DNA of 64,000 nucleotides. It comes from a virus (taxonomy: Duplodnaviria; Heunggongvirae; Uroviricota; Caudoviricetes). The translations under genes and the position numbers were made by a program. Positions 2,856-47,741 of this stretch are shown here, in pieces; the first letter of the stretch is position 1; each line of letters begins with the position of its first letter. The DNA lies in the IMG/VR virus record IMGVR_UViG_3300037882_002350, positions 18,999-82,998 of that record. One strand, written 5' to 3'. The notes under the pieces are model-generated. The model was given only the letters and a program-made list of their open reading frames with translations. It had not been told where the DNA came from and did not search any database.

Positions 2856-2886
2856 GTTAAATTATTACTCCTTAAATTGGCACTAG

Positions 2887-3798: not shown

Positions 3799-3891
3799 TT
3801 TAGTACCTCTAGATATGATAGAGGGAGCATAAAGCCCCCTCTATTTCTTGTAGTATAGACACTCTGCACCAAAAAGTCAAGAACTTTTTGT

Positions 3892-5034: not shown

Positions 5035-5096
5035 TTAATTCTCCTACAAACTTGAAAAACTACTAATCTTGAACCTTTGCTCTTGTTAGTTTGTTT

Positions 5097-6389: not shown

Positions 6390-6390
6390 A

Positions 6391-6963: not shown

Positions 6964-7009
6964 AATTTAACCAAAACCTTGGGTGGGGCTATTAACCCCA
7001 CCCAAAATA

Positions 7010-8995: not shown

Positions 8996-9004
8996 TTAGT
9001 AGCC

Positions 9005-10668: not shown

Positions 10669-11008
10669 CCCACCGCAACTGTTTTTTAGCAGTAGTTAAA
10701 GCGGGATCTTTTCCATAAATTGCGTGTAGCTGTAAATGGTGCTTATGACACAGTGTTGTAGCTACTTCGTATAACTCTTCGTGATGCTCTGAAATAAATC
10801 TGTCTCTTATAGCAAGAACATCTTCTTCGCAATTTATAACAATATTATTATCTTTTTTCCACTTGTTATAAAGTGGGGTTAAGGTATAATGGTGGTGAAA
10901 ATCTAGGTCTTCCGTCGACCCACAAATACGGCACTCGGAACCTTTTTGATATCGTCCTTTAGCCTTATCTCGGATATATTTTATCTCGTCTCTTTTAAGA
11001 TCACTCAT
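10634..11008 (-). CDS. HNH endonuclease (terminase-associated)
   Basis: 124 aa with a CRICGS...DFHHHY...CHKHHLQLH zinc-finger/His-rich HNH signature. It sits between the large terminase and the portal. Confidence 0.55.
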   Translation of the reverse strand: MSDLKRDEIKYIRDKAKGRYQKGSECRICGSTEDLDFHHHYTLTPLYNKWKKDNNIVINCEEDVLAIRDRFISEHHEELYEVATTLCHKHHLQLHAIYGKDPALTTAKKQLRWVEIQRGKHGLN

Positions 11009-11113
11009 TTTACCTCTACTATTTATTTTGTCATTATAAACTCCCAGACCAAGAAAGTCAAGGACAATTTTATTTTGGGGGTTACAATATTATGTCTACT
11101 TTAAAATCTTTTA

Positions 11114-12481
11114 TTAAAGAGAGCCTATTGCGGCATCAAAACTATATAAAGCGTAACGAAGTGCATCAGCCATGTGGGACGCACTATCATGAACTGGTTT
11201 TTCTTTAATAAGATTAGGATTTGGGTCCCATCTATAAGCGTCAAAAGATCGTAGTGTTTGCTTACAATTTTTGTTTACAAATACTTTACCATTATCTACT
11301 ATAGAAGCCACATAACCAATACCGTCTAATAGTGATTTCTTTGCGTTCATCGTAGGTATGTCATACTCTTGTGCAAAGTCATACCTAGTTTGTTGTGCTG
11401 CCGAATCAATATATATGTAATCTAAATCCCATTTTTCTATCATAGCCTGAACATTAGCAGCATAGCCTGATGTTGTTTTCTCATTTTCATAATATTCATC
11501 TACGATATAAAATATTTCATTCTTCCAATCGTAACCCACAACAACCATTGCGGTGGCGTCACGGAAACCTAAGTCTAAGCCAGATACCATATCCATATCT
11601 AGTTCGCCAGGTGTAAATGCCGGATATTTAAGAACTGTCTCACCATTCTCTAACTCTATAGTTTCTAACGGATCTACAATGTTCTCTTTAGGTAGGTTCC
11701 ATATCTGACCTTGATAACTATTAAAGGATGCTTCATATTCTTGTTCAAACTCGGCTTTACTCATAGAGCGACGAGCATCTATAACATCTTCTTCCGTCAT
11801 ACGTGGGTTATCTTCCCAAGTAGAGTGAATAGAGCACCATTGTGGAAAGCTTTCGTGCTCCCCATTTTCCCCAATGTCAAACCCACGATTCCAGAATTCT
11901 GAAAACCAGTTGGTTTTACCACGTGGCGTACTAATAAAAATGGCGCGAGCATTGTCACGATCTAGTGTTGGACGTAACGATACGTTAAATGCATCCTTAC
12001 CCTCACTAGTCAACGCGGCTTCGTCAAATATAATTAGGTCGTATGAACGTCCTACGCAGGAATCAACTTGGTTAACAGAACCCATTCGGATCGTAGATCC
12101 GTTGCTTAGTACTATTACTCGGTCTTTGGCGTTATCCTTCTCAACTTCTAACATATGGTGACGAATGAACGCACGTTGTAGTTCCCAAGATATAGTCGAA
12201 AGATTATAGTTAGGAGACATAATAAGTATGTTTGAACCTGGAACTAGTGCTACGCACTGTCCTATAATGTTAGCTATATAAGTTTTGCCTTGACGTCTGC
12301 TAATAGCGGCGCAAACAAATCTGTATTTGTTTACCGCGTTTATAATAGCTATCTGAGACGGTAGGGGTTCTACATCAATAGATTCCAAATACCTACTAGG
12401 AGATATTTTTAGGAATCTATTTGGTAAGTCTTCAATAATATAATCTGATATTACATCGGACCTACTAATAGTTAAAGTCAT
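11114..12481 (-). CDS. terminase large subunit
   Basis: 455 aa. The N-terminal region has ATPase P-loop-like GQCVALVPGSNILIMSPN and DLIIFDEAA (Walker B). The C-terminal half is nuclease-like. It sits before the portal. Confidence 0.7.
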   Translation of the reverse strand: MTLTISRSDVISDYIIEDLPNRFLKISPSRYLESIDVEPLPSQIAIINAVNKYRFVCAAISRRQGKTYIANIIGQCVALVPGSNILIMSPNYNLSTISWELQRAFIRHHMLEVEKDNAKDRVIVLSNGSTIRMGSVNQVDSCVGRSYDLIIFDEAALTSEGKDAFNVSLRPTLDRDNARAIFISTPRGKTNWFSEFWNRGFDIGENGEHESFPQWCSIHSTWEDNPRMTEEDVIDARRSMSKAEFEQEYEASFNSYQGQIWNLPKENIVDPLETIELENGETVLKYPAFTPGELDMDMVSGLDLGFRDATAMVVVGYDWKNEIFYIVDEYYENEKTTSGYAANVQAMIEKWDLDYIYIDSAAQQTRYDFAQEYDIPTMNAKKSLLDGIGYVASIVDNGKVFVNKNCKQTLRSFDAYRWDPNPNLIKEKPVHDSASHMADALRYALYSFDAAIGSL

Positions 12482-12482
12482 C

Positions 12483-12752
12483 TTATTTCAAAAGTCCTTT
12501 TTTCTTTGTGGTTTCTGGCTCGACTATTTTGTCGTCTAGTAGTAACTCTTTTTGTTCTTCTTCCTGTTTCTCTTCTGTTGTTGTGCTTGCGAGAATTTCT
12601 TCTACGTATTGTTTTTGTTTATCACTAGCGGTAGCTAGAAGTTCGGGATGTAGATGTAAAGGTTCTTTATGCATGACGCCTTCTTTATCAACCCATTTTA
12701 CATAACCTCTTTTAATTTCCATTAGAATTTGTCTCCAAAGTGATAGTGTCAC
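12483..12752 (-). CDS. hypothetical protein
   Basis: 89-aa ORF, translationally coupled upstream of the large terminase. Acidic C-terminus. Confidence 0.3.
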   Translation of the reverse strand: MTLSLWRQILMEIKRGYVKWVDKEGVMHKEPLHLHPELLATASDKQKQYVEEILASTTTEEKQEEEQKELLLDDKIVEPETTKKKGLLK

Positions 12753-13080
12753 TTTCTTTGTTTTCAGTACTTGACATAGCCGCTATGGCGTCAAAAGCTT
12801 TTCCTGTATTATCCGCACGTTTTTCTGCTAGCATATCGCGATTCTCATCTGATTTATTAGCAGTAAAATAAAAGGCCAATATCATATTAATACAACCAGT
12901 TACAATTACTACAGTTATTAAAGTCTTAAATAATTCGACCCCCCAAAGAGCAGGATCGTACTTTGCCATCATAATCATCATAAAACCCATAGCAAAGGTG
13001 GTAAGCATTACAAGTTGTTTCTCTGTAGGCCAACCAGGTAGTCGAGATAAAACTCTATCCCAAAATTCCCAAAAGTTCAT
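12712..13080 (-). CDS. small membrane protein
   Basis: 122 aa with two hydrophobic helices (LVMLTTFAMGFMMIMMA; LITVVIVTGCINMILAFYF). Confidence 0.3.
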   Translation of the reverse strand: MNFWEFWDRVLSRLPGWPTEKQLVMLTTFAMGFMMIMMAKYDPALWGVELFKTLITVVIVTGCINMILAFYFTANKSDENRDMLAEKRADNTGKAFDAIAAMSSTENKESDTITLETNSNGN

Positions 13081-13508
13081 TGTGTAAGTTTATCCATTAG
13101 TCGACCATATGCAGTGTCTCCAAATTGATTGTTTACTTGAACTGCAACTCCCGGAACCATATTACCAGCTTCCTTAGTTGCTTTTATTTCATCCATTCTC
13201 ATTTTATGAGCCATCTGAAGTAGTTCAAGTAAATCTTTAGAAGTGTATATACCAGATTCTCTAGCGTCTTCTAATTTAGATTCAATCATTTCATCAAGCA
13301 GTTTGCCGAGCTTGTCGCGATTTCTATAACCCTGGTCTAAATAAACACCATCTAAATAGCGCTTAACCTCTGGAGTTTGTAAAACTTTAACGACTTCTTG
13401 TCTAGGGATATCCAGCTGTTCTGCTGTAGCATCTACTGTTCCGAAAAACAGAAATGAATTCGCAATATCAAAACCTTCAGGCCCTATTTTTGTAATTTCT
13501 TGTCCCAT
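13077..13508 (-). CDS. candidate terminase small subunit / DNA-binding protein
   Basis: 143 aa, upstream of the large terminase in the packaging module. The N-terminal helix-turn-helix-like segment is AEQLDIPRQEVVKVL. Confidence 0.35.
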   Translation of the reverse strand: MGQEITKIGPEGFDIANSFLFFGTVDATAEQLDIPRQEVVKVLQTPEVKRYLDGVYLDQGYRNRDKLGKLLDEMIESKLEDARESGIYTSKDLLELLQMAHKMRMDEIKATKEAGNMVPGVAVQVNNQFGDTAYGRLMDKLTQ

Positions 13509-13516
13509 ATTTTTCC

Positions 13517-13852
13517 TTAACTAGAGAACGCTACTACTAGGTCACTTACCGAAGAAACGTCCATATCCAAGTTTCCTCCTTCAATAAGTAATAGTATATC
13601 AGTGGGGTCTGCGCCTACTGCCGTGATGTGTAGTGCAGTATCACCTACTGTATTTAAATGAGTCGTGGTTAGTGCTAAATTATACCAACCGTCGCCTCTT
13701 TCTGTTATAGTTGGTGAGATTGCAGAAAAAGCTCCGCCATCTTTACTTATTGTAACTGTAAGTGTTAGACCAGTTTTACCAGTAACATGGTCTGTTGAGT
13801 CTGTCATAAAGACCATGACATTTTTTGCTGTATCTTTTTTAGCTTTACGCAT
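13517..13852 (-). CDS. hypothetical structural protein
   Basis: 111-aa ORF in the structural operon. Confidence 0.25.
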   Translation of the reverse strand: MRKAKKDTAKNVMVFMTDSTDHVTGKTGLTLTVTISKDGGAFSAISPTITERGDGWYNLALTTTHLNTVGDTALHITAVGADPTDILLLIEGGNLDMDVSSVSDLVVAFSS

Positions 13853-14077
13853 TAACTATTCTTCCTCTGCTATAACCAGAACTTCCGCCTCCCGAAGGGC
13901 TTAACGTACCTATAAAGCTACCTTGTGGACCATAAGATATATTAACTCTAACATCTCCCGTTATAGGAGATATTAGAAATAAAGTATGAGTATCTATTGT
14001 TGTGTCAGAAACGACCCCTATATTACCACGATTAGCTTCAGCTACAATATCATAGAAGATAATATCAGTTAATGCCA

Positions 14078-16234
14078 TTAGAATTCTCTAAGTACAGCTC
14101 TTACCTTGATATTATCTGCAAGGGAAGTAGGAGTTACTCTTACATAGGTATTTTCGTTACTACGATCTATATTATTGTATGTAGTCCACGCGCCGCCATT
14201 ATTTATGGATTTTTCCCAAGTCCATGCTTTTGTAACTGAATCATCAGAGCCTAGTGAGGCTCCTGTTTCTGCGTTGAATAACTCAATTTGTAATCTAGGT
14301 ACTGTTGAACCGTAAGCAACCGCGTGACGGAAACCAAATCGTTTGTTAACTAAATCAGTACCAATATTCGAAGAACCCTGCCAATAGTCTGACATATTAC
14401 TGTCTTCATACATTACGGCAACATTTAAAATTCTTGCTGGAACTAGGTGGTCTGCCATCCTAAACTCAAAACTAAATTGTATATGGGAAGCGCCTGCAAC
14501 TCCGGAAATGTCTCCAGAATTATCAATTGTCTGCCACGTACCCGAGTTATCAGAAATACCGGTTGTTCTGTATTTAATTTTGTGAGCTTCAGGTCTTACA
14601 CCAAAGTTCTTTCCTGTATCAAGACCTATAACCATATCTTCACTGGTGAATGCGGCGAGATATTGTTTGGCATTTGGAGTTGCTATACGTGGAGTGACGA
14701 TACGAGAATTTGTTGTACCTACCCACTCCCAATCACACCCGAGAGGTATAGCATAGATATGATTTAAAGCCGCCGTAGTACCTATTCTAACAGCATATAA
14801 CATACCATCTTCAATCCAGCTCGAAAACGGAGAAGCTAATTGCGAAGGTACAGGAGTAATACCGCTATCTGCTATGCCTTGGTCAACCTGTTTATGATCT
14901 ACGAATAAAACACGATCCATCTGTCCGCCGTCTGTTCTATATTGTGTTAGATAGGAACGAGCTCCTGCAACACCTGAAGACATTACAAGAAACTTATCTA
15001 TAAACCCACTGTATTCAATTGAGTTCATAACACCCGTTGCAGCGAATGTATTTATGCCACCAGGAGGAACTTCAGTCATATTATCTATTAACCAACCGGT
15101 TTCAGAAGCAACTATACTATCTACAGCTTTTGTTCTATATATTCTTGTTGCTGTAGTTAAGTATATACAATCGCTACCAGAGCCCGGCCCATGAGAGGTA
15201 TTAGCAATACGACCATTATTATTTTGAGAAGGAGCACCTACAAGAACACCACCACCACCAGTTTTAAATAGGAAAGCATTAGTGGCAGCTCCAGCTGTCA
15301 AAGTAAGATCTGCATAAACGTTGAATTTAAATAATACAGGGTTTGCAAGAGTATCTAACAACCAAAATATTCTGTTTGTTTGTGATGTTTTCTCTTGGAA
15401 TCCGCCTCCAAATGAGACAAGAGCAGTACCTGTTGCTGCATCTTTTAAGAAGTAGCAAGCACGGATACGATCTACAGTTGTCGCAGCAGGAACTGCGCCA
15501 CCAGCAGGTGCGAATAATTCTTTTTTTAAACCTTTAACAACGTATAGACCACCATTAGATGTAGTTACACTCGTACAAATAATATAAGCACGAAGATCTT
15601 CAATAACGTAAGGCGTTCCAGCAGCTATCGATCCTGCAGAAGTAGTTAGTGTTATACCTGTATCAGAGCCTACAGCTGAGATTTCATACCATTGTGTAAT
15701 CAGAGATGGGTCTGTAGAACCAAATCCAATACGATTACCAACGCAGGCTTTGTTAGCAGAAAATGTAGTTGATGTGCCGGTTACTGCTGTACCAGAAACA
15801 GCTACAGTTCCGTTAGTAATTTTTTCATATGACATACGAAGACTACGAATAGTCTTAGCTTCTAATGTACCTGGAAACGTAACAGTAATAAATCCGTCAT
15901 AAGTTAGTGTTCCAGTTATACGATCATAGCGATACATACCTAAACGACGAGTCGTTGCAGCTGTAGCGTTATCGGCTACAAATATCCAATCGGTTCTATC
16001 TGTCTCTGTCTCTGACCATCTCATAGCCCAAGGAAATGCAAAAGGAATAGCTACAGAAGCCTCCATAGGACGAGCTACAGAAACTGGTAGTGGTCCAACG
16101 AAGTTGTCATCTACTCCAGCACCTGTTTTCTGAGTCATAAGATAGCCAATACCTAAGGCGTCTTGATTATACGTACTAACACCTAGTTTGTATGATGGTA
16201 ATGAACCAAATTTTAAGATAGCTGAACGCTTCAT
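14078..16234 (-). CDS. large tail / baseplate or receptor-binding structural protein
   Basis: 718-aa Gly/Thr/Ser-rich beta protein within the tail-fibre gene block. Confidence 0.4.
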   Translation of the reverse strand: MKRSAILKFGSLPSYKLGVSTYNQDALGIGYLMTQKTGAGVDDNFVGPLPVSVARPMEASVAIPFAFPWAMRWSETETDRTDWIFVADNATAATTRRLGMYRYDRITGTLTYDGFITVTFPGTLEAKTIRSLRMSYEKITNGTVAVSGTAVTGTSTTFSANKACVGNRIGFGSTDPSLITQWYEISAVGSDTGITLTTSAGSIAAGTPYVIEDLRAYIICTSVTTSNGGLYVVKGLKKELFAPAGGAVPAATTVDRIRACYFLKDAATGTALVSFGGGFQEKTSQTNRIFWLLDTLANPVLFKFNVYADLTLTAGAATNAFLFKTGGGGVLVGAPSQNNNGRIANTSHGPGSGSDCIYLTTATRIYRTKAVDSIVASETGWLIDNMTEVPPGGINTFAATGVMNSIEYSGFIDKFLVMSSGVAGARSYLTQYRTDGGQMDRVLFVDHKQVDQGIADSGITPVPSQLASPFSSWIEDGMLYAVRIGTTAALNHIYAIPLGCDWEWVGTTNSRIVTPRIATPNAKQYLAAFTSEDMVIGLDTGKNFGVRPEAHKIKYRTTGISDNSGTWQTIDNSGDISGVAGASHIQFSFEFRMADHLVPARILNVAVMYEDSNMSDYWQGSSNIGTDLVNKRFGFRHAVAYGSTVPRLQIELFNAETGASLGSDDSVTKAWTWEKSINNGGAWTTYNNIDRSNENTYVRVTPTSLADNIKVRAVLREF

Positions 16235-16408
16235 TCTGGGAATACTCCGTCTTTAACATACTTAGCATGATAGCAAACCAAATTATCAGGATTTAAAATA
16301 TGGTATAATTCTACAAGATCATCTTCTGCGTAGTCACCTGCCGACAAAACATAAAGATTTGGGTCAAGTAAGCATGGTTCATCTTTTTCTAATCTAATCA
16401 TTAAATTC

Positions 16409-16804
16409 TCAACTTGTAACTACGCCAGTTAAAACATTAGATGTATATTGTAATGTTTTTGTGGCTATTAATGTGTTGGAGCTATTTCTTAGCTCAATAG
16501 AGGTAAGAACCCCGCTACTACGAATGAAGGTTAAGGTTTTATACAACTGGGTTTTTGCAGCGTCGGAATAGAAAGATATACTAGATAGGACGTTACCATT
16601 ATAGGTTAGTGTTTTACCTAGATACTCTTTCTTGGATACTGTAACATCTCCTGTTCCTATATCTGGACCAGTAGATGAAAAACTCATTTCAAAACCTGGT
16701 AACACTTTGCGTACCACAGCCTCACCAGCTGTAGATACGTCAAGGTCGGCACGTTTAATCGTACCGTCCTCAACTTGTGCACCATTAATTCTTGTTCTTG
16801 CCAC
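16409..16804 (-). CDS. tail fibre-like protein (short)
   Basis: The N-terminus MARTRINGAQVEDGTIKRADLD resembles the conserved N-terminus of phage tail fibres. It is a paralogue of the N-terminus of 17008..18084. Confidence 0.35.
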   Translation of the reverse strand: MARTRINGAQVEDGTIKRADLDVSTAGEAVVRKVLPGFEMSFSSTGPDIGTGDVTVSKKEYLGKTLTYNGNVLSSISFYSDAAKTQLYKTLTFIRSSGVLTSIELRNSSNTLIATKTLQYTSNVLTGVVTS

Positions 16805-17018
16805 GTACTTCTCGCGCTAGCTGTGTTCGTCCGTCTTCGGCTTTTTTCAGTCTTTCTAAAAGCAAGCCTCTTTCATGTTCACGATCACTAGCTTCTTGCT
16901 CTAATTTCTCAACGCGTCTTGTCAATTTTTCAACATTCAAATCCGCCGTTCTGCAATTTATAAACAAAACACCAATTTCACGAGCTAAATCTTCTAATAG
17001 TTCATTCTCATTTAACAT
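16785..17018 (-). CDS. coiled-coil small protein (fibre assembly?)
   Basis: 77 aa, charged heptad-like sequence (LEQEASDREHERGLLLERLKKAEDGRTQLARE). Confidence 0.3.
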   Translation of the reverse strand: MLNENELLEDLAREIGVLFINCRTADLNVEKLTRRVEKLEQEASDREHERGLLLERLKKAEDGRTQLAREVRGKNKN

Positions 17019-18084
17019 AATAAGCTCTTAGCTTGTCTCCTGTCAAAGGAGCAAACAACATAGTAATGGCAGTACCCGAAATTGTAAAGTCATTTCCCGC
17101 ACCCGGTTCTAAAACTATACCATTCAAAAACAACTGTAGCGTACCATTCTGCGGCGCAGAAGTTAAGGTAAATGCAGTGTTAGATCCGTTTATCGTACCA
17201 CTAGGAGTTTCATTATTAACGTGGTCTGTGTACTTCAAAAAGCCCGAACCAGCTGTTCGTACTATAGAAATAACACCAGTATCATTTATCGTTGCATCAC
17301 CGCTGACCGTTGTATAAGTTGCTACGCCAGAGTTATTCGCCATTAGTATTCGACCAGCAGTACCGTCAGCTATTTTAATACCATTTGCACTGCGTGTAAG
17401 TGAAGTGCCGTCTAGTTTTACACGAACGTTACCAGAGCCATCGTTTTCAACGCCCTGACCAAAGTTAACCGAAAATGTATTACCTGCAAGACCAAGTCCT
17501 GCACCATTTATATAAGATGTACCACTTAAATCTTGGTTAATGGTTACAGCAGTTGTATCAACTGTAATAGCGTCTGTGATAACCATCCATTTAGTATCTG
17601 CATAAGTAGTACCTTCTTCTACAAAGAATAAAGTAGACTTCTGAGTTGATGCGGCCGCCCACGAAGATGGGCGAGCCCATGCACCCGCAGCTACAGCCCA
17701 TGGACCGTTCTGTGACGCTGTTGTTTGCGCTCGTAGAAGCACAATTTGACCCGACGTAAGACTTACACCATCAATTGTTTGTAAACCAGTCAATGCAACG
17801 TTTGCTACAGAAACTGCTCGTGCTGAACGGATTTGAATACCATTCACAAGTCCCTGCACAGAACGCAAGTTCATAGCATCTTGAGGGTTAGTAGCATCCG
17901 CTAAGTTAGTGAGTTTAAATCCACCAACTGATTGGTCAGCAGTAAATGCAACTGTACCACCTGCACGAACGAATGTAGCTCCATCTGCCAAATTAGCAGT
18001 TGGAATACTGTACCCAGAAGCAAGTTTCGCTAGTGTTATTGTTCCGTCAGCAATCTGGGTGCCACGAAGAAAAGTTTGTGCCAT
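17008..18084 (-). CDS. tail fibre protein
   Basis: 358 aa. N-terminus MAQTFLRGTQIADGTITLAKLA. Gly/Thr/Ala-rich beta repeats. Confidence 0.45.
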   Translation of the reverse strand: MAQTFLRGTQIADGTITLAKLASGYSIPTANLADGATFVRAGGTVAFTADQSVGGFKLTNLADATNPQDAMNLRSVQGLVNGIQIRSARAVSVANVALTGLQTIDGVSLTSGQIVLLRAQTTASQNGPWAVAAGAWARPSSWAAASTQKSTLFFVEEGTTYADTKWMVITDAITVDTTAVTINQDLSGTSYINGAGLGLAGNTFSVNFGQGVENDGSGNVRVKLDGTSLTRSANGIKIADGTAGRILMANNSGVATYTTVSGDATINDTGVISIVRTAGSGFLKYTDHVNNETPSGTINGSNTAFTLTSAPQNGTLQLFLNGIVLEPGAGNDFTISGTAITMLFAPLTGDKLRAYYVK

Positions 18085-18091
18085 TTATATC

Positions 18092-18439
18092 TCAATACGT
18101 AAAGTTAATTACGTCACCGGGTTGAACACCCATAAGGGAAGGTACAGTAAGTGTTGCACCTGAAAGTGTGTAATAAGCTGGGCTTTGCATCAACCCATTC
18201 AAAAAGAATATACCGGCAACAGAAGGTCTACTTAAAATATAATTTTGTGTGCCTGTTGTAGTTACGATATGTTCAAAAGTACTAGTTAGTCCTGGCCCAG
18301 CTGGACCGGAGGGTCCTGCCGGCCCCATTACTAAAATTATTTGCTCGTCTGAAGCACTTAATATTTCAGTAATTGACTGTGTTTCAGGAAAGGCAATTTT
18401 TATTTGAGGACCTGGAGGTCTAGACCATTTAAGTAACAC
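18092..18439 (-). CDS. collagen-like repeat tail fibre protein
   Basis: Gly-X-Y run GPAGPSGPAGPG followed by a beta-rich C-terminus. Confidence 0.4.
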   Translation of the reverse strand: MLLKWSRPPGPQIKIAFPETQSITEILSASDEQIILVMGPAGPSGPAGPGLTSTFEHIVTTTGTQNYILSRPSVAGIFFLNGLMQSPAYYTLSGATLTVPSLMGVQPGDVINFTY

Positions 18440-18719
18440 TAGGGATAATCTCTATATTAACGGTAGAGGACTTCCTAACATCTCCGTTTGTTAGAGTTAG
18501 GGAAACGTCCGTAACGTATAATCCTGGGGTGGGAAAACTAGGGAGCTTTAGATTCCATCCGTTTGTAATATTTGTAACATTGAATGTACCTTCAAGCGGA
18601 TAAGGTTCTGTACGTGTCTTTTTTCGTAGTTTTGCACTTATTGAGCTTATAGTGTTTATGGAACCGTCTTCCACTGTTACATTAAATGATACTGTCTCAC
18701 CTTGTTTTAGCCTGTTCAT
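18429..18719 (-). CDS. hypothetical structural protein
   Basis: 96-aa ORF overlapping neighbours in the fibre operon. Confidence 0.25.
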   Translation of the reverse strand: MNRLKQGETVSFNVTVEDGSINTISSISAKLRKKTRTEPYPLEGTFNVTNITNGWNLKLPSFPTPGLYVTDVSLTLTNGDVRKSSTVNIEIIPSVT

Positions 18720-19009
18720 GTAATCACCATTCTTATAGGGATAATTTTAAGAGTATCACGATTGTCCCATATTCTCAATTTAAAATTAAATTCACCTGCC
18801 GTTGTGGGTATTCCTGTAACTGTAAGTCCGGAAACTGACATACCTGTCGGTAGGGCACCTTCAAAAATGTCGACGGTGTAGGGCGCCTGAGCTCCGGTTG
18901 GAACAAGCGTTACAGTTGCGGTCGAGTTGGAGGGATAGGACGGATTTTGAGTTATACTGACTTGGAAAAGTCTAGCTCGTTTTCGTCGCAAAAGAAAGTT
19001 TCGTCTCAT
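18716..19009 (-). CDS. hypothetical structural protein (first gene of late leftward operon)
   Basis: 97-aa ORF. Its start codon lies 8 nt downstream of a TTGACA-N17-TATACT promoter, so the message is near-leaderless. Confidence 0.3.
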   Translation of the reverse strand: MRRNFLLRRKRARLFQVSITQNPSYPSNSTATVTLVPTGAQAPYTVDIFEGALPTGMSVSGLTVTGIPTTAGEFNFKLRIWDNRDTLKIIPIRMVIT

Positions 19010-19737: not shown

Positions 19738-20214
19738 AATATCATGTCTTGGAACCGCCCTAATTGCGCAACATTATTGCGCGCAATTATATTACAATTC
19801 ATTCAGATGAATTAACATTATCTTGCGTTATTGACCTTGAATAAGCAACAAGCTTGCTTGATTTTGTAATATTCGCTTTTGTCAAGCATTATTTTCGGAA
19901 CAAAACGTGAAAACGCCGCACAGCGCGAAACTTTATTTTTATGGACTAAGGTAAGCAAAAGGGCAAATGGCTCTCAGGAGGCTTCCTAGGGGCTTACGGG
20001 GCATATGCTATGTTTGGCATGATTATTGCATGGCAATATGGCCTGCCAAACTTGGCATGATTCTTGCATATATGATACGTTATATCATCTGTTATAGCGG
20101 AACAAAACGTGAATTCGTTTCATCGCATAAAACACTCGATTCGTCGCAACACTATATGCAAGGTTTGATAGGGTGTTAAGATAGGACATCAAGACAACGA
20201 AGGGACTAAAAAAA

Positions 20215-21161: not shown

Positions 21162-21495
21162 TGCGAATGATTCTCAATTGGCGCCGAAAATTTTGGTCGT
21201 GCTTCTCCATGTATAACGTGTAACCTATCGTTTGTGGGTTGTCAAGCGTTTTATTTATTTATTTTCAAGATATTTACTTTTTGTTAACCATTAGCTAGGG
21301 TAAGACTTGAAAGGGTTACACTATGGCAAAAACGCAACAGGCGCGCGACAATCTGCCGCCAATGATAACAATTTACTTGACTTTACAAGAAGCTGAAGCT
21401 ATAAGAGCAACCAATTGCACGGCACTGGCAAGGGTTAGACTGCGATTAAAGCAGTTGACAGTCAACAGTCAATTATCAATTGTAAAAGGTGATTA

Positions 21496-22204: not shown

Positions 22205-22588
22205 AGAAAAGGGGCTTGACAATGGAAGAACAATGTGAAATAACTATTTCTAGCGCAATCGCTGTTTTGCTTCGCAATGCTATGCAGGACTATTTAGTTA
22301 ATGTAGCAGATGCGGATAACTCAGATGAATGTGACGCCTTTGCATCGCTTATGGTGGGTTTTGATGAATGTGATCGCATTGTTATCACGGTAAAGGACTA
22401 AATAATTATGTGACAAAAATGTCACATAATTAGCGCCGAAAATTTTGGGCGACTTCCCACCTTTAACTTACATATAGATGAAAGCATGGGGCACGTCAAG
22501 CATTTTATTTTAGGGGCATGTCTTTTTTATTGTTGACAAGCCTAGTCTTTTCTGACAATGCTAAGGCAAGGCAAAAGGAGCATTAAAG

Positions 22589-23161
22589 ATGGCAAATATC
22601 ATTTTTGATTTAGACGGGACGGTTATTGACACAAGCCACCGTTACCGCAATAAGCCTTGCGGCGATATAGATTTAGATTTTTGGTTTGAAAATTCAATTC
22701 CTGAAAAAATTGCGCAAGATAGCTTGCTACCTTTGGCAGACAGTTGGAAACGCTTCTATAATGAAGGGCACACAATAATTGTATGCACGGCGCGCTCTTG
22801 GGATAGGCACCCGAATTTACCTATTGATTTAGGGCCAATTTACGAAAGTTTTTTGCATGATAACGGTTTGCATTATCATGCGCTGCTATACCGTAATTTA
22901 GCCGGTCCCCGACATGAAAATTTAGGGGACGGTGATCTGAAAATTCGATTGCTAACAGACTATGCCCTATCACAAGGTTATAAATCTATAGCGGATATGG
23001 GCGCTATCATGTTTGATGACAATATAAAAGTTATTCAAGCGATGATAGGAGAGAGGCTAGTGTGTTGCGACGCGACTAGCTACAATAGGCAACTTGCAAA
23101 AGGGAAAACAATCGGAAAAAGCATTTTTGATTTGGCAAATAAATGGAGATTAGCATCATGA
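22589..23161 (+). CDS. HAD-superfamily phosphatase (T5 dmp-like 5'-deoxyribonucleotidase candidate)
   Basis: N-terminal IIFDLDGTVIDT matches the HAD motif I DxDGT. Size 190 aa. It sits in the pre-early-like block next to the A1-like gene. Confidence 0.45.
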   Translation: MANIIFDLDGTVIDTSHRYRNKPCGDIDLDFWFENSIPEKIAQDSLLPLADSWKRFYNEGHTIIVCTARSWDRHPNLPIDLGPIYESFLHDNGLHYHALLYRNLAGPRHENLGDGDLKIRLLTDYALSQGYKSIADMGAIMFDDNIKVIQAMIGERLVCCDATSYNRQLAKGKTIGKSIFDLANKWRLAS

Positions 23162-23406: not shown

Positions 23407-23600
23407 ATTAGGCGGCTGGATTTATTCAGCCGCCAATTGGCGCCGAAAATTTTAGGCGACTTCCCACCTTTAACTTACATATAACCATAAATAAACGTGT
23501 TGTCAAGCCTTTTTATTTTATTTTTTCGCTTGCAATCCCGTTTTGTTTCGCCTAAGCCGGTTTTGTCGCAACTATCGCGGCGATTATAGGAAGACAGAAA

Positions 23601-25262
23601 ATGACTGTTAAGTTACAACCGGAAACTATAGCTTACTTCAAAGCTGCTGGCGTTTTTCGTGCTAAGACAGATGAAAAGGCACGGGAAAAATTTGATGAAA
23701 GTGTAGAAGATTTTGACGGTGAAGACGATTGCGAAACAAAAGACGCGCTTTTTACCGCGCTTATTGCTTGGCGCGATGAAACAAAGCTTGTAAAATTGCA
23801 AGCTGATGCTGCACGAGAACGCAAGCGGCAACAAAAAGCGGAAGCGGACGCCGCAAAGCCACTAACGGCTTCAATTGATAGCGTTGCAGATGTTATCAAG
23901 AAAATGCCGCACGGTCGATATGTTTTGACCGTGGCGCAAAATAACACGGATATCGACCCTGATATGTTTGCAGCGTTGCAACATTATTGTGTTGAAATGG
24001 ACGCAACTTTATTAATTGCCCGAACGACCTATAACAAGGGCGGGTTCAGGCAACCGGACGTAAATGACACAGAAGGGGAGAAGGGCGCTATTTTTTATGA
24101 TGATGCGGTGCAACCCTATCTTGTTTCCGGTCATATTGATTTAGGCGGCAAATTTCATTTTATCGCAGACGCTAACGTCATTGTAACAACAAAATGGCCG
24201 ACTAGCGGATTTGACGGCATTGCACCCGCTGGCGTGGGAGTTATAATTCCAGCCAGCAAAATTGAATTGCGCGTTAGCGCGGCGCTAAAAAATGCCCCTA
24301 ACAAAGTAATTGCCGCTACTGGTGCAATTACAAAGCGAAACTACATTATGCGCAAAGCGGGGGCGCAAGCCGCCTTTGCGCACTCAATCGGCGCTATTTT
24401 TGTAGATACGAAAAAAGGCACAATCCGCCATCTTGAACAGATGGAAGGGACAAAGGGCTTTTATGACATGGACCGCTTTTTTTCACCCTATGGGGTTAAG
24501 GATGCGTTAGGGCATGTTGCGGCGTTGCAATTTGGCGATATTCACGCTGAAAAGATGGAGCGTAAAAACATGAAAGCGGCGCTTGCTCTTATAGAGCAGT
24601 TGCAACCGGCTAACGTGATTTTGCATGATCTGCTAGATTTTTCATCCCGTAATCATCACAATATAAAAGATCCGACTTTCATTCATGCGCAAATGGTCGC
24701 AGGAAATACCGTCAAAGGCGACTTGCAAAAAATGGCCGCTATTGTAGATGAATTTCTTGCAACTGGCGTTAACTTGCATGTTATTGAAAGCAATCACGAC
24801 CTTGCGATTAATACTTGGTTGAAAAATGCCGATTTTAAAAATGATCCCGTAAATGCTGTTGTGTATCTTGATTGCATGTTAGCACTTTACAAGCATCAAG
24901 AAAAAGGGGGCAAGGATTACTTTAATATGCTATCCTTTGCTTATTCCAATATCGGGGGTGGTCGTTTTGCAGAAAGCATCGACTTTCACGAAACGGACGA
25001 AACGCTAACTATAGCCGGTGTGGAAATGGGCAATCATGGGCATAATGGGGTTAATGGCGCAAGGGGCAACCCTAAAGGATTTGCCGCATTAGGTGTAAAA
25101 ATGAACACCGGACATACGCATAGCCCTAGCATATATGGCCCTTGCTATACAGCCGGTGTTACCGCTTCCCTAGATATGGATTACAACAAGGGCGCATCGT
25201 CGTGGGCGATTGCCCACCTTGTCACCTATGACAACGGACAGCGACAAATTTTATTCGCTTGA
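23601..25262 (+). CDS. A1-like calcineurin-type metallophosphoesterase (Mre11/SbcD-like nuclease fold)
   Basis: 553 aa with phosphoesterase motifs in order: GDIH, LHDLLD, ESNHD, GNHGH, GHTH. Its size and context are close to T5 pre-early protein A1 (about 556 aa). The T5 A1 sequence itself was not compared. Confidence 0.55.
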   Translation: MTVKLQPETIAYFKAAGVFRAKTDEKAREKFDESVEDFDGEDDCETKDALFTALIAWRDETKLVKLQADAARERKRQQKAEADAAKPLTASIDSVADVIKKMPHGRYVLTVAQNNTDIDPDMFAALQHYCVEMDATLLIARTTYNKGGFRQPDVNDTEGEKGAIFYDDAVQPYLVSGHIDLGGKFHFIADANVIVTTKWPTSGFDGIAPAGVGVIIPASKIELRVSAALKNAPNKVIAATGAITKRNYIMRKAGAQAAFAHSIGAIFVDTKKGTIRHLEQMEGTKGFYDMDRFFSPYGVKDALGHVAALQFGDIHAEKMERKNMKAALALIEQLQPANVILHDLLDFSSRNHHNIKDPTFIHAQMVAGNTVKGDLQKMAAIVDEFLATGVNLHVIESNHDLAINTWLKNADFKNDPVNAVVYLDCMLALYKHQEKGGKDYFNMLSFAYSNIGGGRFAESIDFHETDETLTIAGVEMGNHGHNGVNGARGNPKGFAALGVKMNTGHTHSPSIYGPCYTAGVTASLDMDYNKGASSWAIAHLVTYDNGQRQILFA

Positions 25263-25475
25263 TTGCGATAAGGAAGGGGTGGCGCTTGATTGTGTCGCCC
25301 TTTTCTTTTACCTTGGAATGATACGTTATATCATTACACAAAATTATTTGCAGATATTGAAAATAAATGTTGACAGCAAGGCGCTTGCTAGGTATAAGAG
25401 ATTATCAAGAGCGGGGAAGCCTCCAAACTTGAAACAAGTTGGCAATGTCGCCAAATTGAAAAAAGGAAAATGCAA

Positions 25476-25916
25476 ATGACTAAAGAAAAAACACCGAATT
25501 ATTCCGCCGCACAAGTTGCGTTGATTGTCTCGACTGCTGCTGCTGCTGGCGGTTCGCTAAATCTCGATCTCGCAAAATCGCTTGCCGCTGATCCTGCGAT
25601 GAATAGTGAAGACGGACCGCGCAATTATCGCTCAATTGTTGCCAAAATCTCTCAAATGGTTCGCGCTGGCGACACTGTGGAAGTTGACGGCGAAAATGTG
25701 CCGATCACCTATGAACGCAAGCAACCGACAACAAAGGACGGCAAGCCGGTCACGAAAAAAGTCGATTTGGTCAATCAAATTGCATCGCTTGCCGGTGTAA
25801 ATGCGGCCAAGCTTGACGGCATGGACAAAGCACCTAAACAGGCGCTTGAAACCATTGTTGCGGCGCTTGAAAGTCGGGGTGGTGATCCTGTGGAAGCAAC
25901 AGGCACGGACGGCTAA
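25476..25916 (+). CDS. hypothetical protein (A2-position gene)
   Basis: 146 aa with RBS aaaaaaggaaa. It sits downstream of the A1-like gene behind a TTGACA-N17-TATAAG promoter. Confidence 0.35.
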   Translation: MTKEKTPNYSAAQVALIVSTAAAAGGSLNLDLAKSLAADPAMNSEDGPRNYRSIVAKISQMVRAGDTVEVDGENVPITYERKQPTTKDGKPVTKKVDLVNQIASLAGVNAAKLDGMDKAPKQALETIVAALESRGGDPVEATGTDG

Positions 25917-26326
25917 GGCCGGACCAACAAGCGGGGCGGCGCTTTCAATCCGCCCATATAAACGCGACGACGTTTTGAAACCTTTCGTTCCCAAGTGAAA
26001 CCGTTGGACAGGTTAGGAATATAACGGATAGTAGCAACGGCCAATTTCCTAATGAGCCGTAAGGGCAAAAGAGCAAAAGGGGCAAATTGCCCCTTTTGCT
26101 AATACTGCATAATGATATGTTATAACATAACATCAAGATTCCAGCCAAAACTTATCCACAATTAAAATGGTTAAAAGGCTTGACAAGCCCGAAAAATGTT
26201 GTTATGTTCATACCAAGGATGGCGCCGAAAATTTTGTGTCGCCAACACGCAATAAAATTACGTGCGATTTTACTTGACAATACAAATGGATTAAGGCATA
26301 ACGAGATTAACGAAAGGGCGTAGAAG

Positions 26327-26587
26327 ATGACTACCATAATTACAGAAATTAAGATTCCCTGTCGATGGGCTAAACCCCATCCAACTGGCACAAGTGTTTC
26401 TGACAGGGATGCTGTAGCCGTTTTTTCATTAGGGGTTGGCCCTTGCGGCAAAGAAGTTAATAAGCTAGATATGGTTTACGACAATCCTGCTTATTTCGCT
26501 GTTGTGCAATATTGTGACGGGGAAGCAAAAACTTTTGTTTACCCTTATCACACAATAACAGGCAGAATTAAAATAACTGAAAAATAG
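26327..26587 (+). CDS. hypothetical protein
   Basis: 86-aa ORF preceded by a GGCGCCGAAAATTTT motif and a TTGACA box. Confidence 0.3.
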   Translation: MTTIITEIKIPCRWAKPHPTGTSVSDRDAVAVFSLGVGPCGKEVNKLDMVYDNPAYFAVVQYCDGEAKTFVYPYHTITGRIKITEK

Positions 26588-26813
26588 TTCTTGACAGTGC
26601 AATCAAAACGCGCTATAAGAGAGAAACGAGGCAAGGAAGTAACCAACCCTTGTGCAAGCGTTTAGCCATTGCCCTGACCTTATTCCGTGTGGTAGCGGAG
26701 AGGACACCTATTGGGGATTGACGCTAAAGGGCGTGGCAGAAAAGCTACTCAAAATCTACCGCTAGTGGTATAAATTCTAGCTAAGCGGGGAATAATGGCC
26801 ATTATTCCCCGTC
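26587..26813 (+). ncRNA. short promoter-to-hairpin transcription unit A (sRNA or micropeptide transcript)
   Basis: TTGACAG-N16-TATAAGAG promoter at 26591-26623, followed by about 190 nt without an ORF of 30 aa or more. It ends in the perfect hairpin GCGGGGAATAATGG/CCATTATTCCCCG. Confidence 0.3.
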
Positions 26814-26931
26814 GAAAATTTAGAGAGCCTTTTCAACGCTGTTGAGGCGTCAAGATTAGTAATCGTGAATAGCGGCCTAACTAGCCCTGTTTTGGAAAGG
26901 CTCTCTAAGTTTTTGACAAAAGGGCACAAAA

Positions 26932-27225
26932 ATGCGAGTAATTTTCAAAAGCCACTGGCACCCGAATAGCAACGGCACTGAATATACAGACGTTCTAGGG
27001 ATTTACCCCGATTTAGGTGAGCAAGCACAAAAAGACGCTAATCAGGCTGCATGGGACCGCTACGAGGAAATGAGCGAGGAAGAGCAGGAGGAAGACGGCG
27101 TCGAGGATGAGGGACCGTATGTAATTATCGAGGAATATGATCCGGAAATCCATGACGGCGAACGCGCTGGCGGTGGGTCGTTTGAAGATGAATTTGCGGA
27201 AATAGAAAAAGCATTTATTGCTTGA
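26932..27225 (+). CDS. highly acidic small protein (DNA-mimic candidate)
   Basis: 97 aa with long Asp/Glu runs (EEMSEEEQEEDGVEDEGPYVIIEEYDPEIHDGE...FEDEFAEIEKAF) in the pre-early-like block. Confidence 0.35.
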   Translation: MRVIFKSHWHPNSNGTEYTDVLGIYPDLGEQAQKDANQAAWDRYEEMSEEEQEEDGVEDEGPYVIIEEYDPEIHDGERAGGGSFEDEFAEIEKAFIA

Positions 27226-27604
27226 CATTAAAAGCAATATGAAGTAATTCTTGGCCCTAGCGGACAATATTCTAGACGTTCACGCTAGGACAGATAGGCG
27301 AAGGTGACAACAAGCAAGGCAATAGTAGAACGCTATAAGGTCAATCTGCTCGTTTTTGAGTTAGCTTGCACTGAATGAGGCTAAACCGAATTGACACGGG
27401 CCTCTTAACCGGAAATAAACCCGCCTTGTGCGGGTTTATTTTTGCGCTTTTTTCACTTGACAAGATCCAATTCCGCCACTATAATAAAAGTAGCGACCAA
27501 AATTGGCGCCGAAAATTTGCAGATACCCCACCCATTATAATTACGTATAGCTATAAGTCTAGTTACTGTCAAGCGAAAAAATTTCACATTTTGCGATTAT
27601 TTTT

Positions 27605-27925
27605 ATTGACAGGACGGTCAAAACGCGATATAAGAGATTATCAAGACGAGATAAGCCTTAAGCAAGTGGAGGCGTCTTGGGTGGGTAGTCCGGCCCTAGA
27701 TACCGTGATAGCGTGCCAATACGGGGTTAATAAATTGGTGTGACACTTCCTGTCACTAAGGTGGAGCGTAGGCTATTTCGGCCTGTCGATAATACCAAAC
27801 GAAACCGGAACCTATTCCGCTTGACAGTAAATAGGCGTTATCACATAACGTAAAAGAGGCTCGCTTGGCTTCGCGTGAAAAAGAAAAGCCGTTGCGGAGT
27901 CATGACCGTAACGGCTTTTTGATTT
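27605..27925 (+). ncRNA. short promoter-to-terminator transcription unit B
   Basis: TTGACAG-N17-TATAAGAG, then the conserved leader ATTATCAAGA, then about 280 nt with no long ORF. The only candidate is a 21-codon GTG frame behind a GGAGG. It ends in terminator GCCGTTGCGG...CCGTAACGGC-TTTTTGATTTTTT. Confidence 0.35.
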
Positions 27926-27939
27926 TTTCTGAAAATAAG

Positions 27940-28170
27940 TCTTGACAGAACAGTCAAAGCGCGCTATAAGAGATTATCAAGAGGGTGGAAACCTAGATAT
28001 AGGACAATAAAGCTCTCTTGACTCATTGATATGGTTCGCTACCGGACATTGAGGGTGGTTCCGTGTGTTGCCATAAGCTGACGGACGTTGGGGCTTGTTC
28101 CCGTAGCGACAAAAACGCAACAAGCTAGAGCCGCAGGGTGCGCGATTGCCCTGCGGCTTGAATTTTATTT
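27940..28170 (+). ncRNA. short promoter-to-terminator transcription unit C
   Basis: TTGACAG-N17-TATAAGAG plus ATTATCAAGAG leader. About 180 nt. Terminator GCCGCAGGG-tgcgcgatt-GCCCTGCGGC-TTGAATTTTATTT. Confidence 0.35.
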
Positions 28171-28189
28171 AGCTTTAATAAAATTAATT

Positions 28190-28416
28190 ATTGACATGAT
28201 GCCGTTTTGTTGTTATAAGAAGCTATCAAGACGGCGGAGGCATTCACCGAATTGACAACGTAAATCTAGGTTACGGGGCTTGAAATGAGACTTCAAGGGG
28301 CGCTTTGCATAATCCCTATTGAAATAGATGTTCTGGTCTGCCTATACGTCCGTAATTGCAAATAATCGGGCAACCTTGCAAAAGAACGTGGAGGGCGGCA
28401 GAAATGCCGCCCTTTT
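28190..28416 (+). ncRNA. short promoter-to-terminator transcription unit D
   Basis: TTGACATG-N16-TATAAGAAG plus CTATCAAGA leader. About 180 nt. Terminator GGGCGGCA-gaaa-TGCCGCCC-TTTTT. Confidence 0.35.
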
Positions 28417-29665
28417 TCACCATATACGCATGATATGTTATAACATATCATGCCGCTTCGCGGCAAGTGGAACAAAACAGGAACAACCCCCTAGCGCCGA
28501 CGCGAGTAGTACGTCAACAACTATTTTACGCATACGTGCGCCGGCCGCCCAGTGCGAAATCTAGTACTATTTTTACGTGTGGCCACAACTTACCTCAAAT
28601 ATACAACTTAAACAGCCCCTCCCCACCCTGGTATACTAGCAGAGCTTGAAGCATCAGTCAAGTGCTAAATTGAGCGTCTCCGCGCACGTGTTGTTGCAAG
28701 CTCATACCAGTAGGCCTTCAATGAGCCCTGTTTTGGACATATTCCGACTTATTTGTAGTTTAACGAAGCTTGGGCAAGTTTTTTCACCGAAGGTGAATTT
28801 ATTTGCCCCAACTTTGAGTTAAAGCGACTTATTTTCATTTCCCGACTCGTTTTGGTCGTTGAGAGTTGGTATTCTGGAACATTCTGCGCCCGACAGCGAA
28901 AAATTCGGGCCGGCGAAAAAAATTTGCTGCGGACCTGCAGCAAGCTGTAGCAGGACTCACGCTTCGCGTGAAAAAGGCTTCAATCTAGTACAATATCAAC
29001 ACTAGATATATTCGTAAGGCAATAAAATACCCCCACTAGTACTAGACCAATGGAGGTTTAAACGAGCTAGAGTGGACTAGGGAGGGAGGCGGCCTGGGCG
29101 CTGGAATCCTCTTATAAGTCCACATAAATCAAAACAAACCCATCCACAGCCCCATTAGTATCCCAGTAGTAGCAACGTAACAAATAATCAAGTCGAAAAT
29201 GGTGTTTTTCAAAACACGGAGTTGTAGCCGACAGAAGCTATTATGACAGTAATAAATTTGTGGTGAAGTTGTTGGTAAAAGCGAGTTGTAGATAAGTAGT
29301 TAGTAAGTGTACGCGAAGCGTACTACGTTTGCGATAAGTTAGATAGAAGTAGATATAAGTTAATAGATATCTCACTTCACAGGGAACATTCTCTCTTGGC
29401 TACGCGGAGCTACGCCAGAGAATATTCCATGAGTGATATCTATTTTTAGTAATATAAAGAATTTGTGTATCAATCCATCATATAATATATGTTATAACAC
29501 ACTTTTTCCACAAATGCAAGAACTTTTTTGGAGGGGGTACGGTAGAAACGGAGTGAAATACCCAAGTCTTTATTTAAGGCCCCTTGCGAAAATCCTTGAC
29601 AAAGATGGTCTTTTTCTCTATACTGCTACTTAACACACTAATGTGTCAGTATTCAAGCAACGAAG

Positions 29666-30139
29666 TTGCACAATTTGGAGAATTACATGAAAAATATCTT
29701 TTACTCTACAAAGCTAGACAAGAATAAAAATAAGTTAACAGTAGGTTATCTCACTAGTAAAAATCGTGACCGTTACGGCGGTGATGGTTCTAAACAAGAT
29801 ACAGTATTTTTTGCGGATTTTAATTCCGAAGGAAAACTAGCACTGTTCGATACTAGCGTGCATGATGACGTTAAGGGTCATGTAATGCGTGCTATGATTG
29901 TAAATAACGGAGCACTAGCGACGGATAGTTCTGGTGGAAATTTTGTACTTTATGCAAAGTTGAATGATGTGTGGTCTCGAACTCCTTTTAGTTTTGGTGA
30001 TTTTAGTGCTGCTAACTCTGCTATGAAAACGATGATTAGTCAGTATCAAGCGATGTTGGTTCGTGACGAATCAGAAACTAAAGAACATGTTACAGAAAAA
30101 GAAGACATATACGATGCAGATTTGACTATTGGAGAATAG
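29666..30139 (+). CDS. hypothetical early protein
   Basis: 157-aa ORF with RBS ggagaattacATG. First gene after the long non-coding stretch. Confidence 0.4.
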   Translation: MHNLENYMKNIFYSTKLDKNKNKLTVGYLTSKNRDRYGGDGSKQDTVFFADFNSEGKLALFDTSVHDDVKGHVMRAMIVNNGALATDSSGGNFVLYAKLNDVWSRTPFSFGDFSAANSAMKTMISQYQAMLVRDESETKEHVTEKEDIYDADLTIGE

Positions 30140-47705: not shown

Positions 47706-47735
47706 TAACTCTTGACATTTAGTTAAAAGTATCGT
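47706..47735 (+). promoter_or_regulatory. sigma70-type promoter of the tmRNA-like gene
   Basis: TTGACA, 17 nt spacer, TAGTAT. Confidence 0.45.
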
Positions 47736-47741
47736 AGTATG

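Follow-up and report, generated by a model that had tools for sequence, protein, structure and literature searches.

What does a phage encode in a row of strong promoters and terminators with no credible gene between them? The question is raised by four head-to-tail units, A to D, at 26587-28416 of a 64,000-nt stretch of tailed-phage DNA (Caudoviricetes; IMG/VR record IMGVR_UViG_3300037882_002350, positions 18,999 to 82,998), hereafter the window. A first-pass annotation had taken all four for stand-alone promoter-to-terminator units, possibly a battery of small regulatory RNAs. Our analysis separates them: we lean, with some reserve, towards units B, C and D being small non-coding RNA genes that are expressed within minutes of the start of infection, and unit A being a messenger RNA (mRNA) leader. 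Under this scheme B, C and D (27.6-28.4 kb) would be autonomous cassettes, each made up of a sigma-70-type promoter of high strength, 190-290 nt free of genes, and an intrinsic terminator. Their RNAs would come from the sole phage DNA inside the cell at that stage.

Unit D as a candidate structured RNA

Unit D (28226-28417, plus strand) is predicted to be a conserved structured non-coding RNA of ~190 nt. In agreement with its first description, it has a promoter at 28191-28219 (plus strand; recognised by the promoter pattern, the leader and comparison with relatives), a terminator at 28393-28412 and no credible open reading frame (ORF). The terminator is an 8-bp G+C-rich hairpin followed by TTTTT.

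Related loci were obtained by protein-guided look-ups in public assemblies; blastn of 25300-29500 against 50,697 phage records gave no match. In the pre-early protein A1, identity to the window is 87-88% for L007 and L008 (partial A1), 84% for L002/L003, 82% for L005, 79% for L004, 56-58% for L001 and L015, and 55-56% for L093 and L094. L024 comes from the same sample as L005. The search for homologous units in T5-like relatives, which the first-pass annotation had proposed, was successful for D: copies are found in L002/L003, L007, L024 and L093 (A1 55-88% identical).

The copies are conserved blockwise, with invariant CAACGTAAATCTAGGTTA, CCGTAATTGCAA and GGCAACCTTGCAAAAGAACGTGGAGGGCGGCAG around a variable middle. 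In the consensus fold, which includes L093, the first conserved block (28258-28272) pairs with the last (28372-28389) in a long-range helix. Helices 2-4 are 100% paired, and three compensatory pairs account for all L093 substitutions in the 3′ block. Over the whole structure, eight pairs have both sides changed, compared to 2.9 ± 1.4 after shuffling (none of 500 shuffles reaches eight) and 1-2 in slid controls. The terminator has invariant G-U pairs that agree with the plus strand as the transcribed one. For this unit the small-RNA proposal and the suggested covariation check have thus come out well, on the strength of the conserved blocks, the eight double-changed pairs and the G-U pairs that fit the plus strand.

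The D transcript would consist of a 5′ hairpin, the long-range helix closing a variable central domain, and the terminator. Based on the covariation, D is to be regarded as a new predicted RNA and, having a defined structure and five sequence variants, it is a concrete candidate for testing. Exact and degenerate D patterns retrieved no further copies from IMG/VR, JGI metagenomes or GTDB genomes, and a covariance model run over 53 loci recovered the five known copies only, together with a weak match (23.6 bits) to the C′ unit of L007 described below.

Promoters, leaders and the variable slot

As the first-pass annotation had reported, a promoter precedes each of units A, B, C and D. These are TTGACA-N17/18-TATAAG sequences at 26591, 27606, 27942 and 28191, and a fifth lies at 25370; the pattern TTGAC-N16-20-TATAAGA is found 6 times where 0.09 would be expected. 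All four units therefore have the promoter expected of a non-coding RNA gene; a terminator of their own is found for B, C and D and not for A.

The shared leader is also real. TATAAGAGATTATCAAGA is exact at 25393, 27629 and 27965, has three mismatches at 28214 and recurs at 61235, and the 18-nt box-plus-leader has three exact copies. The ATCAAGAS segment itself starts 4-5 nt 3′ of TATAAGA. Its company is varied. It stands ahead of the A2-like gene in the window and in every relative (in the window with TTGACA-N17-TATAAG and leader GATTATCAAGAG, 25370-25412, plus strand, before an ORF at 25470-25916 that matches the relatives' A2-like genes) and ahead of a 90-95-aa ORF in L002, L007 and L008. 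With leader TATAATGAGTTATCAAGAG it also belongs to a promoter in the transfer RNA (tRNA) region (61235-61275, plus strand), 5′ of tRNA-Pro and recognised by the recurrence of the leader. In 13 IMG/VR contigs with promoter and leader, a Shine-Dalgarno sequence and the ATG of an ordinary gene usually follow within ~20 nt; the leader precedes a tRNA in one case and a boxA-like leader in two. Across 185,579 bacterial genomes the promoter-plus-leader pattern gave 13 scattered matches, about chance level.

Since it also precedes ordinary genes and a tRNA, we read ATCAAGAS as a promoter feature: it is the predicted initial transcribed segment of a phage promoter type, not the signature of an RNA family. 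Conserved transcribed regions of T5 promoters are a parallel. The leader can also pair with a complement 25-40 nt further 3′, giving a predicted 5′-terminal stem in unit C and in L008, L015 and L094, and such a stem would stabilise the RNA.

Strong early and pre-early promoters of coliphage T5, among them P_N25, P_H207 and P_D/E20, were reportedly described by Bujard and colleagues. The window promoters resemble these three in being near-consensus sigma-70 sequences with an A/T-rich upstream region, clustered in the pre-early region, and in having a conserved initial transcribed segment common to promoters of one phage. They differ in a -10 hexamer ending in G (TATAAG), in the transcribed segment ATCAAGAS and in that several drive no gene. 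The T5 promoter literature mentions P_H22 and P_D/E20 and calls the pre-early promoters exceptionally strong and difficult to clone.

A few observations on these promoters stand apart from the argument. The -10 hexamers of all the pre-early promoters typically end in G (TATAAG, TATATG, TATACG), not in the canonical T. At 61235-61525 the leader TATAATGAGTTATCAAGAG promoter is followed by ~290 nt without an ORF before tRNA-Pro, perhaps the leader of a tRNA precursor, perhaps one more non-coding unit. In two of the IMG/VR contigs (L019, ~72 on the minus strand, and L021, 75-130) promoter and leader are followed by a hairpin and GCTCTTTGAAAA, resembling the boxA antitermination signal of ribosomal RNA operons.

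For units B and C, the described combination of promoter, hairpin with T-tract and lack of a credible ORF holds. Unit B (27641-27930, plus strand, 5′ end inferred) is a predicted ORF-less transcript of ~290 nt that has no homologue, with its promoter at 27606-27634 and its terminator at 27883-27920, followed by a T-tract; at 27822 it has an internal promoter-like site. Unit C (27977-28170, plus strand), likewise predicted and without homologue, measures ~195 nt, with its promoter at 27942-27970 and a terminator at 28128-28159 plus T-tract. Both promoters are on the plus strand and were identified by the promoter pattern, the leader and repeat analysis; that of C is 77% identical to that of B over 65 nt. 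The predicted 5′ stem of C is formed by UCAAGAGGGU from the leader and GCUCUCUUGA. Whole units fold with z-scores of -3.9 (B) and -3.0 (C), due to the terminators.

The unit bodies are mutually dissimilar, as first stated: repeat analysis of 25200-29700 yields just the promoter/leader, a palindrome and the GGCGCCGAAAATTT motif, and no unit contains tandem repeats. Unit B (27868-27883, just before the terminator) and the untranslated region further right (28961-28976) have 16 nt, GCTTCGCGTGAAAAAG, exactly in common, a repeat longer than chance would give in 4.5 kb.

Comparison with the relatives places B and C in a variable slot between two anchors. The right anchor is D. The left anchor (27407-27646) is 79-88% identical to the relatives, above coding DNA, and contains a repeated conserved non-coding element, GGCGCCGAAAATTT...TGTCAAGC (27503-27575, no strand assigned), which at 79-85% identity to the relatives is itself better conserved than coding DNA. 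Across relatives the slot holds 0-3 cassettes. It is empty in L024; L002 has one ORF-less unit (B′), L007 two (B′ and C′) and the window two; L004 has two coding cassettes and one ORF-less unit. The L002 and L007 copies of B′ are 88% identical; their consensus fold has three compensatory pairs and no broken one, though two sequences give little power. L008, L015, L093 and L094 have more ORF-less units, unrelated, behind the same promoter type.

The D promoter of L024 consists of the -35 box and spacer of a B′-type promoter joined to the D leader, and the window promoters of A, B and C are paralogous. These two findings point to gain and loss of cassettes by recombination between the repeated promoters, and B and C would then be strain-specific members of the slot between the GGCGCCGAAAATTT element and D. 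It is plausible, on indirect evidence, that they are strain-specific RNA cassettes.

The array also extends beyond the span first given to its four units. More ORF-less stretches are found at 25917-26100 and 27226-27447, and a consensus sigma-70 promoter (TTGACA-17-TATAAT, 12/12 matches; 27457-27485, plus strand), kept in L002, L007 and L024, points towards unit B.

The element of the left anchor is an observation in its own right. In the form GGCGCCGAAAATTT(T)-N~45-TGTCAAGC it occurs at 21176-21250, 22435-22505, 23440-23512 and 27503-27575, with a variant at 26221-26285, just 3′ of terminators, with the next gene block following. No other non-coding sequence is as well conserved across the clade (79-88%), and L002, L005 and L009 have several copies of it. 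Read on the minus strand, each copy is TTGACA-N17-TAYAYG, promoter-like and facing the upstream bidirectional terminator, and the core, GGCGCCGAAAATTTTCGGCGCC, is palindromic and operator-like.

Unit A and the surrounding pre-early region

Unit A has its own promoter, as first described (26591-26619, plus strand; -35 TTGACA at 26591-26596, -10 TATAAG at 26614-26619; repeat family D1), here without the ATCAAGA leader. It did not stand up as a stand-alone unit: the hairpin at 26787-26810 has no T-tract and the structure runs on towards the next gene, which encodes a very acidic protein of 97 aa (26932-27225, plus strand). A promoter scan between this structure and the ORF at 26932 found none. 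We therefore assign the 97-aa ORF to the unit A promoter, no other promoter serving it. From this arrangement unit A is, instead of a small RNA, the predicted 310-nt structured 5′ mRNA leader of the acidic-protein gene.

The body of unit A (26622-26786, plus strand) forms the ORF-less 5′ part of this leader and is without homologue. A 90-95-aa signal-peptide ORF, 5′ of the acidic gene, occupies this promoter slot in L002, L006, L007 and L008. The acidic gene itself has homologues of 51-71% identity at the same position in L002, L006, L007, L008 and L024.

The 3′ part of the leader is a conserved composite structure (26787-26917, plus strand; fold z-score -7.4). In this module a 10-12-bp hairpin with a GGCC loop (26787-26810) leads straight into a closing stem of 23-24 bp (26811-26834 with 26895-26917), which encloses a branched interior of ~60 nt; no T-tract follows, and the stem ends 14 nt before the ATG at 26932. 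Counterparts stand before the homologous gene in L007 (z-score -7.75), L024 (-7.0) and L008 (-3.2). L094 has one as well (-6.2), without an acidic-protein gene after it. Each genome has one copy of the same architecture, and the stem sequences differ between loci. The copies were compared by separate folds per locus because the stems share no sequence, which makes a MAFFT/RNAalifold alignment unusable. The hairpin covaries, with GGGGAATAATGG/CCATTATTCCCC in the window and GGGAAGGGTGG/CCACCCTTCCC elsewhere.

A site of the RNase III type is expected to have a stem of at least ~20 bp conserved as structure, and a 23-24-bp stem is what we find, with z-scores of -6.2 to -7.75 in four loci. The module is probably, going by these predicted folds, an RNase III-type processing or stability site, and the 310-nt leader would carry it for that use. 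RNase III processing sites lie between the early genes of T7. Like them, the module as predicted is a large, very stable structure with a stem of at least 20 bp between an upstream RNA and the next early cistron. It differs in combining a hairpin with a closing stem, in its conserved GUCGAAAAU and AUUUUCGAC ends and variable branched interior, and in that no gene follows the module in L094. This hairpin-plus-long-stem module is a second new conserved RNA structure of the region.

The acidic protein has runs of E and D and a clade-conserved location, and no Pfam or PHROG match. A DNA-mimic-type anti-restriction protein is conceivable, as a guess only. Its gene is followed by an ORF-less 3′ region (27226-27447, plus strand) with a bidirectional terminator at its end (27410-27444); 27207-27238 is 97% identical to L004 9184-9215. 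A weak promoter-like sequence at 27226 drives an 83-aa ORF in L004.

The pre-early placement of the units, already suggested by the first-pass annotation, is supported. Genes at 1-19000 are on the minus strand, head and tail genes among them, and from 19100 all genes run rightward. The ORF at 23601-25262 matches phrog_1745 (A1 'DNA transfer protein' / metallophosphoesterase family; E = 5.8e-152) and is 40% identical over 90% of its length to the annotated A1 of Klebsiella T5-like phages. At 22589-23161 there is a homologue of dNMPase, and the matching dmp proteins of the relatives carry PF26880 (Phage_T5_dNMPase). The 148-aa ORF at 25470-25916 has the position of A2 after A1 and is kept in the relatives, with no Pfam or PHROG family match. 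Downstream of A2, 2.5 kb are 78% non-coding and dense with strong promoters and terminators. After the units come 1.2 kb without a credible ORF (28420-29650), with palindromes, direct repeats and hairpins and with conserved blocks in L004, L024, L093 and L094; early genes begin at 29666. By this gene content the region is the pre-early (first-step-transfer) block of a predicted T5-like phage.

The left terminal repeat of T5 has untranslated repeat regions, including repeat region 3, and T5 relatives have a variable ORF region between A2 and the injection-stop region (Davison, bioRxiv 10.1101/866236). The order of parts in this section of the window corresponds to that of the T5 repeat: pre-early genes, a variable small-ORF region and a putative untranslated injection-stop region. 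The stretch at 28420-29650 is, by its position, likely the counterpart of T5 repeat region 3, the injection-stop signal. As in T5, long non-coding pre-early stretches are conserved better than the small ORFs nearby, and a variable region lies between the A2 position and the putative injection-stop region; the T5 regions differ in that their repeats, palindromes and DnaA boxes act as DNA and that no promoter-to-terminator units or RNA genes are reported in them (Davison, bioRxiv 10.1101/866236).

The right border of the array is a perfect 26-bp palindrome, GCATGATATGTTATAACATATCATGC (28428-28453, no strand assigned), at the start of the untranslated region; contigs L002, L003 and L007 stop inside their copy after unit D. 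Palindromes of the form ATGATAnnTTATAACATATCAT are found at 20066-20090, 25318-25345, 26112-26135, 28428-28453 and 29480-29500, ~45-50 bp 5′ of some -35 boxes and also at the border of the untranslated region, and L001 has four copies in tandem (13690-13780). A consensus DnaA box, TTATCCACA, lies at 26152-26160 between the palindrome at 26112 and a promoter at 26180; such boxes have also been noted in the injection-stop region of T5. Within the untranslated region a direct repeat, GAGTAGTACGTCAACAACTATTTT, occurs at 28504 with a partial copy at 28561. Elsewhere in the window, 47708-48130 encodes a permuted two-piece transfer-messenger RNA (Rfam alpha_tmRNA 89.2 bits, tmRNA_permuted 89.1 bits) that ARAGORN did not report.

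Competing readings and known systems

Several results weigh against B, C and D being RNA genes. The covariation of D is based on five distinct sequences and mostly on the divergent L093, and single-sequence predicted structures showed no significant preservation between homologues. L004 and L094 do without D, which makes it a common but dispensable, non-essential unit. No homologue of the B and C bodies was found by blastn and nhmmer over all fetched related loci. Without their terminators the bodies fold with z-scores of -1.6 to +1.5, no better than shuffled or coding sequence (coding controls mean -1.0). Rfam 15 returned no family at the gathering threshold for 25200-29600, even at E values up to 10 (best e.g. 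27.6 bits where 86 are needed), and antisense complementarity of the units within the window reaches at most 12-13 nt, chance level. Six related loci likewise had no Rfam match.

The chief competing reading has the units act at the DNA or transcription level: a cluster of very strong promoters with short, rapidly recycled transcription units could capture host RNA polymerase or shield the injection-stop region from read-through, and the bodies would be filler. The lack of B and C homologues and their unremarkable structure fit this, as do near-consensus promoters with A/T-rich upstream sequence as the only repeated part, units directly adjoining the palindrome and untranslated region, and the exceptional strength of T5 pre-early promoters, difficult to clone according to the literature. 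We nevertheless consider it unlikely. The D body is under both sequence and pairing constraint, which is unexpected of filler, an argument that covers D and not B or C; the consensus fold of B′, 88% conserved between L002 and L007, contains no broken pair; and 150-250 nt of unique sequence per unit would be left unexplained in an otherwise densely coding phage.

Coding potential was the other issue. The statement that the units lack any ORF of at least 30 aa needs correction, because mechanical ORFs of 37 aa (27740-27853) and 55 aa (28088-28255) are present, the 55-aa one crossing the next promoter. The ORF at 27375-27743 was rightly dismissed as spurious: it runs over two promoters and a terminator, and neither L007 nor L024 keeps the frame intact. 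Stop codons number 26, 27 and 28 in the three frames of 27230-28420, and stop-codon reassignment opened no long frame.

We regard it as quite improbable that the units encode micropeptides, namely a 20-codon GTG frame at 27681 in B (first counted as 21 codons), a 21-codon GTG frame at 28063 in C and a 26-codon ATG frame at 28285 in D. Shine-Dalgarno-preceded frames are indeed present in B and C, behind GGAGG- or GAGG-like sequences at suitable spacing, and yet chance gives frames of at least 20 codons in ~20% of composition-matched sequences (13-22% for such frames). For D the idea fared worse. Its ATG is in frame with a 20-codon GTG frame of L002 and L007, where a TAG-to-TAA change retains the stop, but the ATG at 28285 is GTG in those two loci and GGT with a frame-shifting indel in L024, nothing corresponds in L093, only 4 of 20 residues are common to the window and L002, and the frame occupies the least conserved part of D between invariant flanks.

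Of the longer ORFs that the first-pass annotation had expected in relatives if the units were decayed genes, the intact 90-95-aa ORF in the unit A slot was found, and no trace of a decayed gene was seen in the bodies of A, B or C. We give equally little credence to the units being promoters and terminators left over from protein-gene cassettes: the same promoter type does drive small protein genes in relatives (the 90-95-aa ORF of L002/L006/L007/L008, the 83-aa ORF of L004) in a region highly variable among T5 relatives (Davison, bioRxiv 10.1101/866236), but tblastn of the slot ORFs and 593 ORFs from 12 related loci against the A, B and C bodies left no trace and matched only real genes and conserved non-coding elements, blastn against the phage records found nothing, stops are evenly distributed over the frames, D persists ORF-less in phages whose A1 identity falls to 55%, and every relative examined has ORF-less units. 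In the sequence of the unit bodies decayed genes are not detectable.

If B, C and D are RNA genes, what would they do? T5-type phages inject ~8% of the genome first, and the host and its defences have to be shut down within minutes. From where the units lie on the first-entering DNA, how strong their promoters are and how they turn over among close relatives, we infer that the RNAs may act in trans in host takeover or counter-defence; an array that differs between close relatives is the pattern expected of counter-defence loci. T5 first-step DNA has more assigned functions than known genes (Davison, bioRxiv 10.1101/866236), and RNA could perform part of the missing pre-early functions. A bolder version, which we hold to be doubtful, sees the slot from the GGCGCCGAAAATTT element to the palindrome as an 'RNA moron' island: a hypervariable collection of interchangeable non-coding RNA cassettes, shuffled by recombination at their promoters and expressed from first-step-transfer DNA, would disarm defences or take over the host by RNA, with D as the widespread core and B and C as strain-specific members.

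According to a 2024 review, few non-coding RNAs of lytic phages have been characterised and their roles are still to be elucidated; it names Racr anti-CRISPR RNAs and a phage RNA that activates CBASS (a system of anti-phage signalling that uses cyclic oligonucleotides) (PMC10884466). A Racr RNA or a ToxI-type antitoxin RNA was considered for the units and is not supported, as they have no tandem repeats and no direct repeats besides the promoters. The T5-family anti-retron factor Rad was also set aside as an RNA precedent, Rad being a protein.

Phage small RNA genes as such are a known kind; the pre-early place and the arrangement have not been described before. Literature on the T5 pre-early region describes untranslated repeats and the variable ORF region and no non-coding RNA genes, and the cassettes are probably very early phage small RNAs, of which the T5-like group has no described example.

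Known phage examples include the species 1 and 2 RNAs in the tRNA cluster of T4 and early non-coding RNAs of Pseudomonas phages. The candidate units B, C and D resemble such genes in having a promoter and an intrinsic terminator to themselves, a length in the 100-300 nt range, and no ORF that is credible in B and C or conserved in D; D adds a conserved secondary structure. They differ in lying on T5-like first-step-transfer DNA as a tandem exchangeable array, with no CRISPR-like or tandem repeats and no Rfam match. For the arrangement, a further likeness is offered by the morons of lambdoid phages, autonomous promoter-gene-terminator cassettes reportedly described by Hendrix and colleagues. 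Like morons, the window cassettes are self-contained, sit as insertions with conserved neighbours on both sides, and come and go among close relatives. Unlike them, they would carry non-coding RNA as cargo, belong to a virulent phage and have apparently been exchanged via their repeated promoters.

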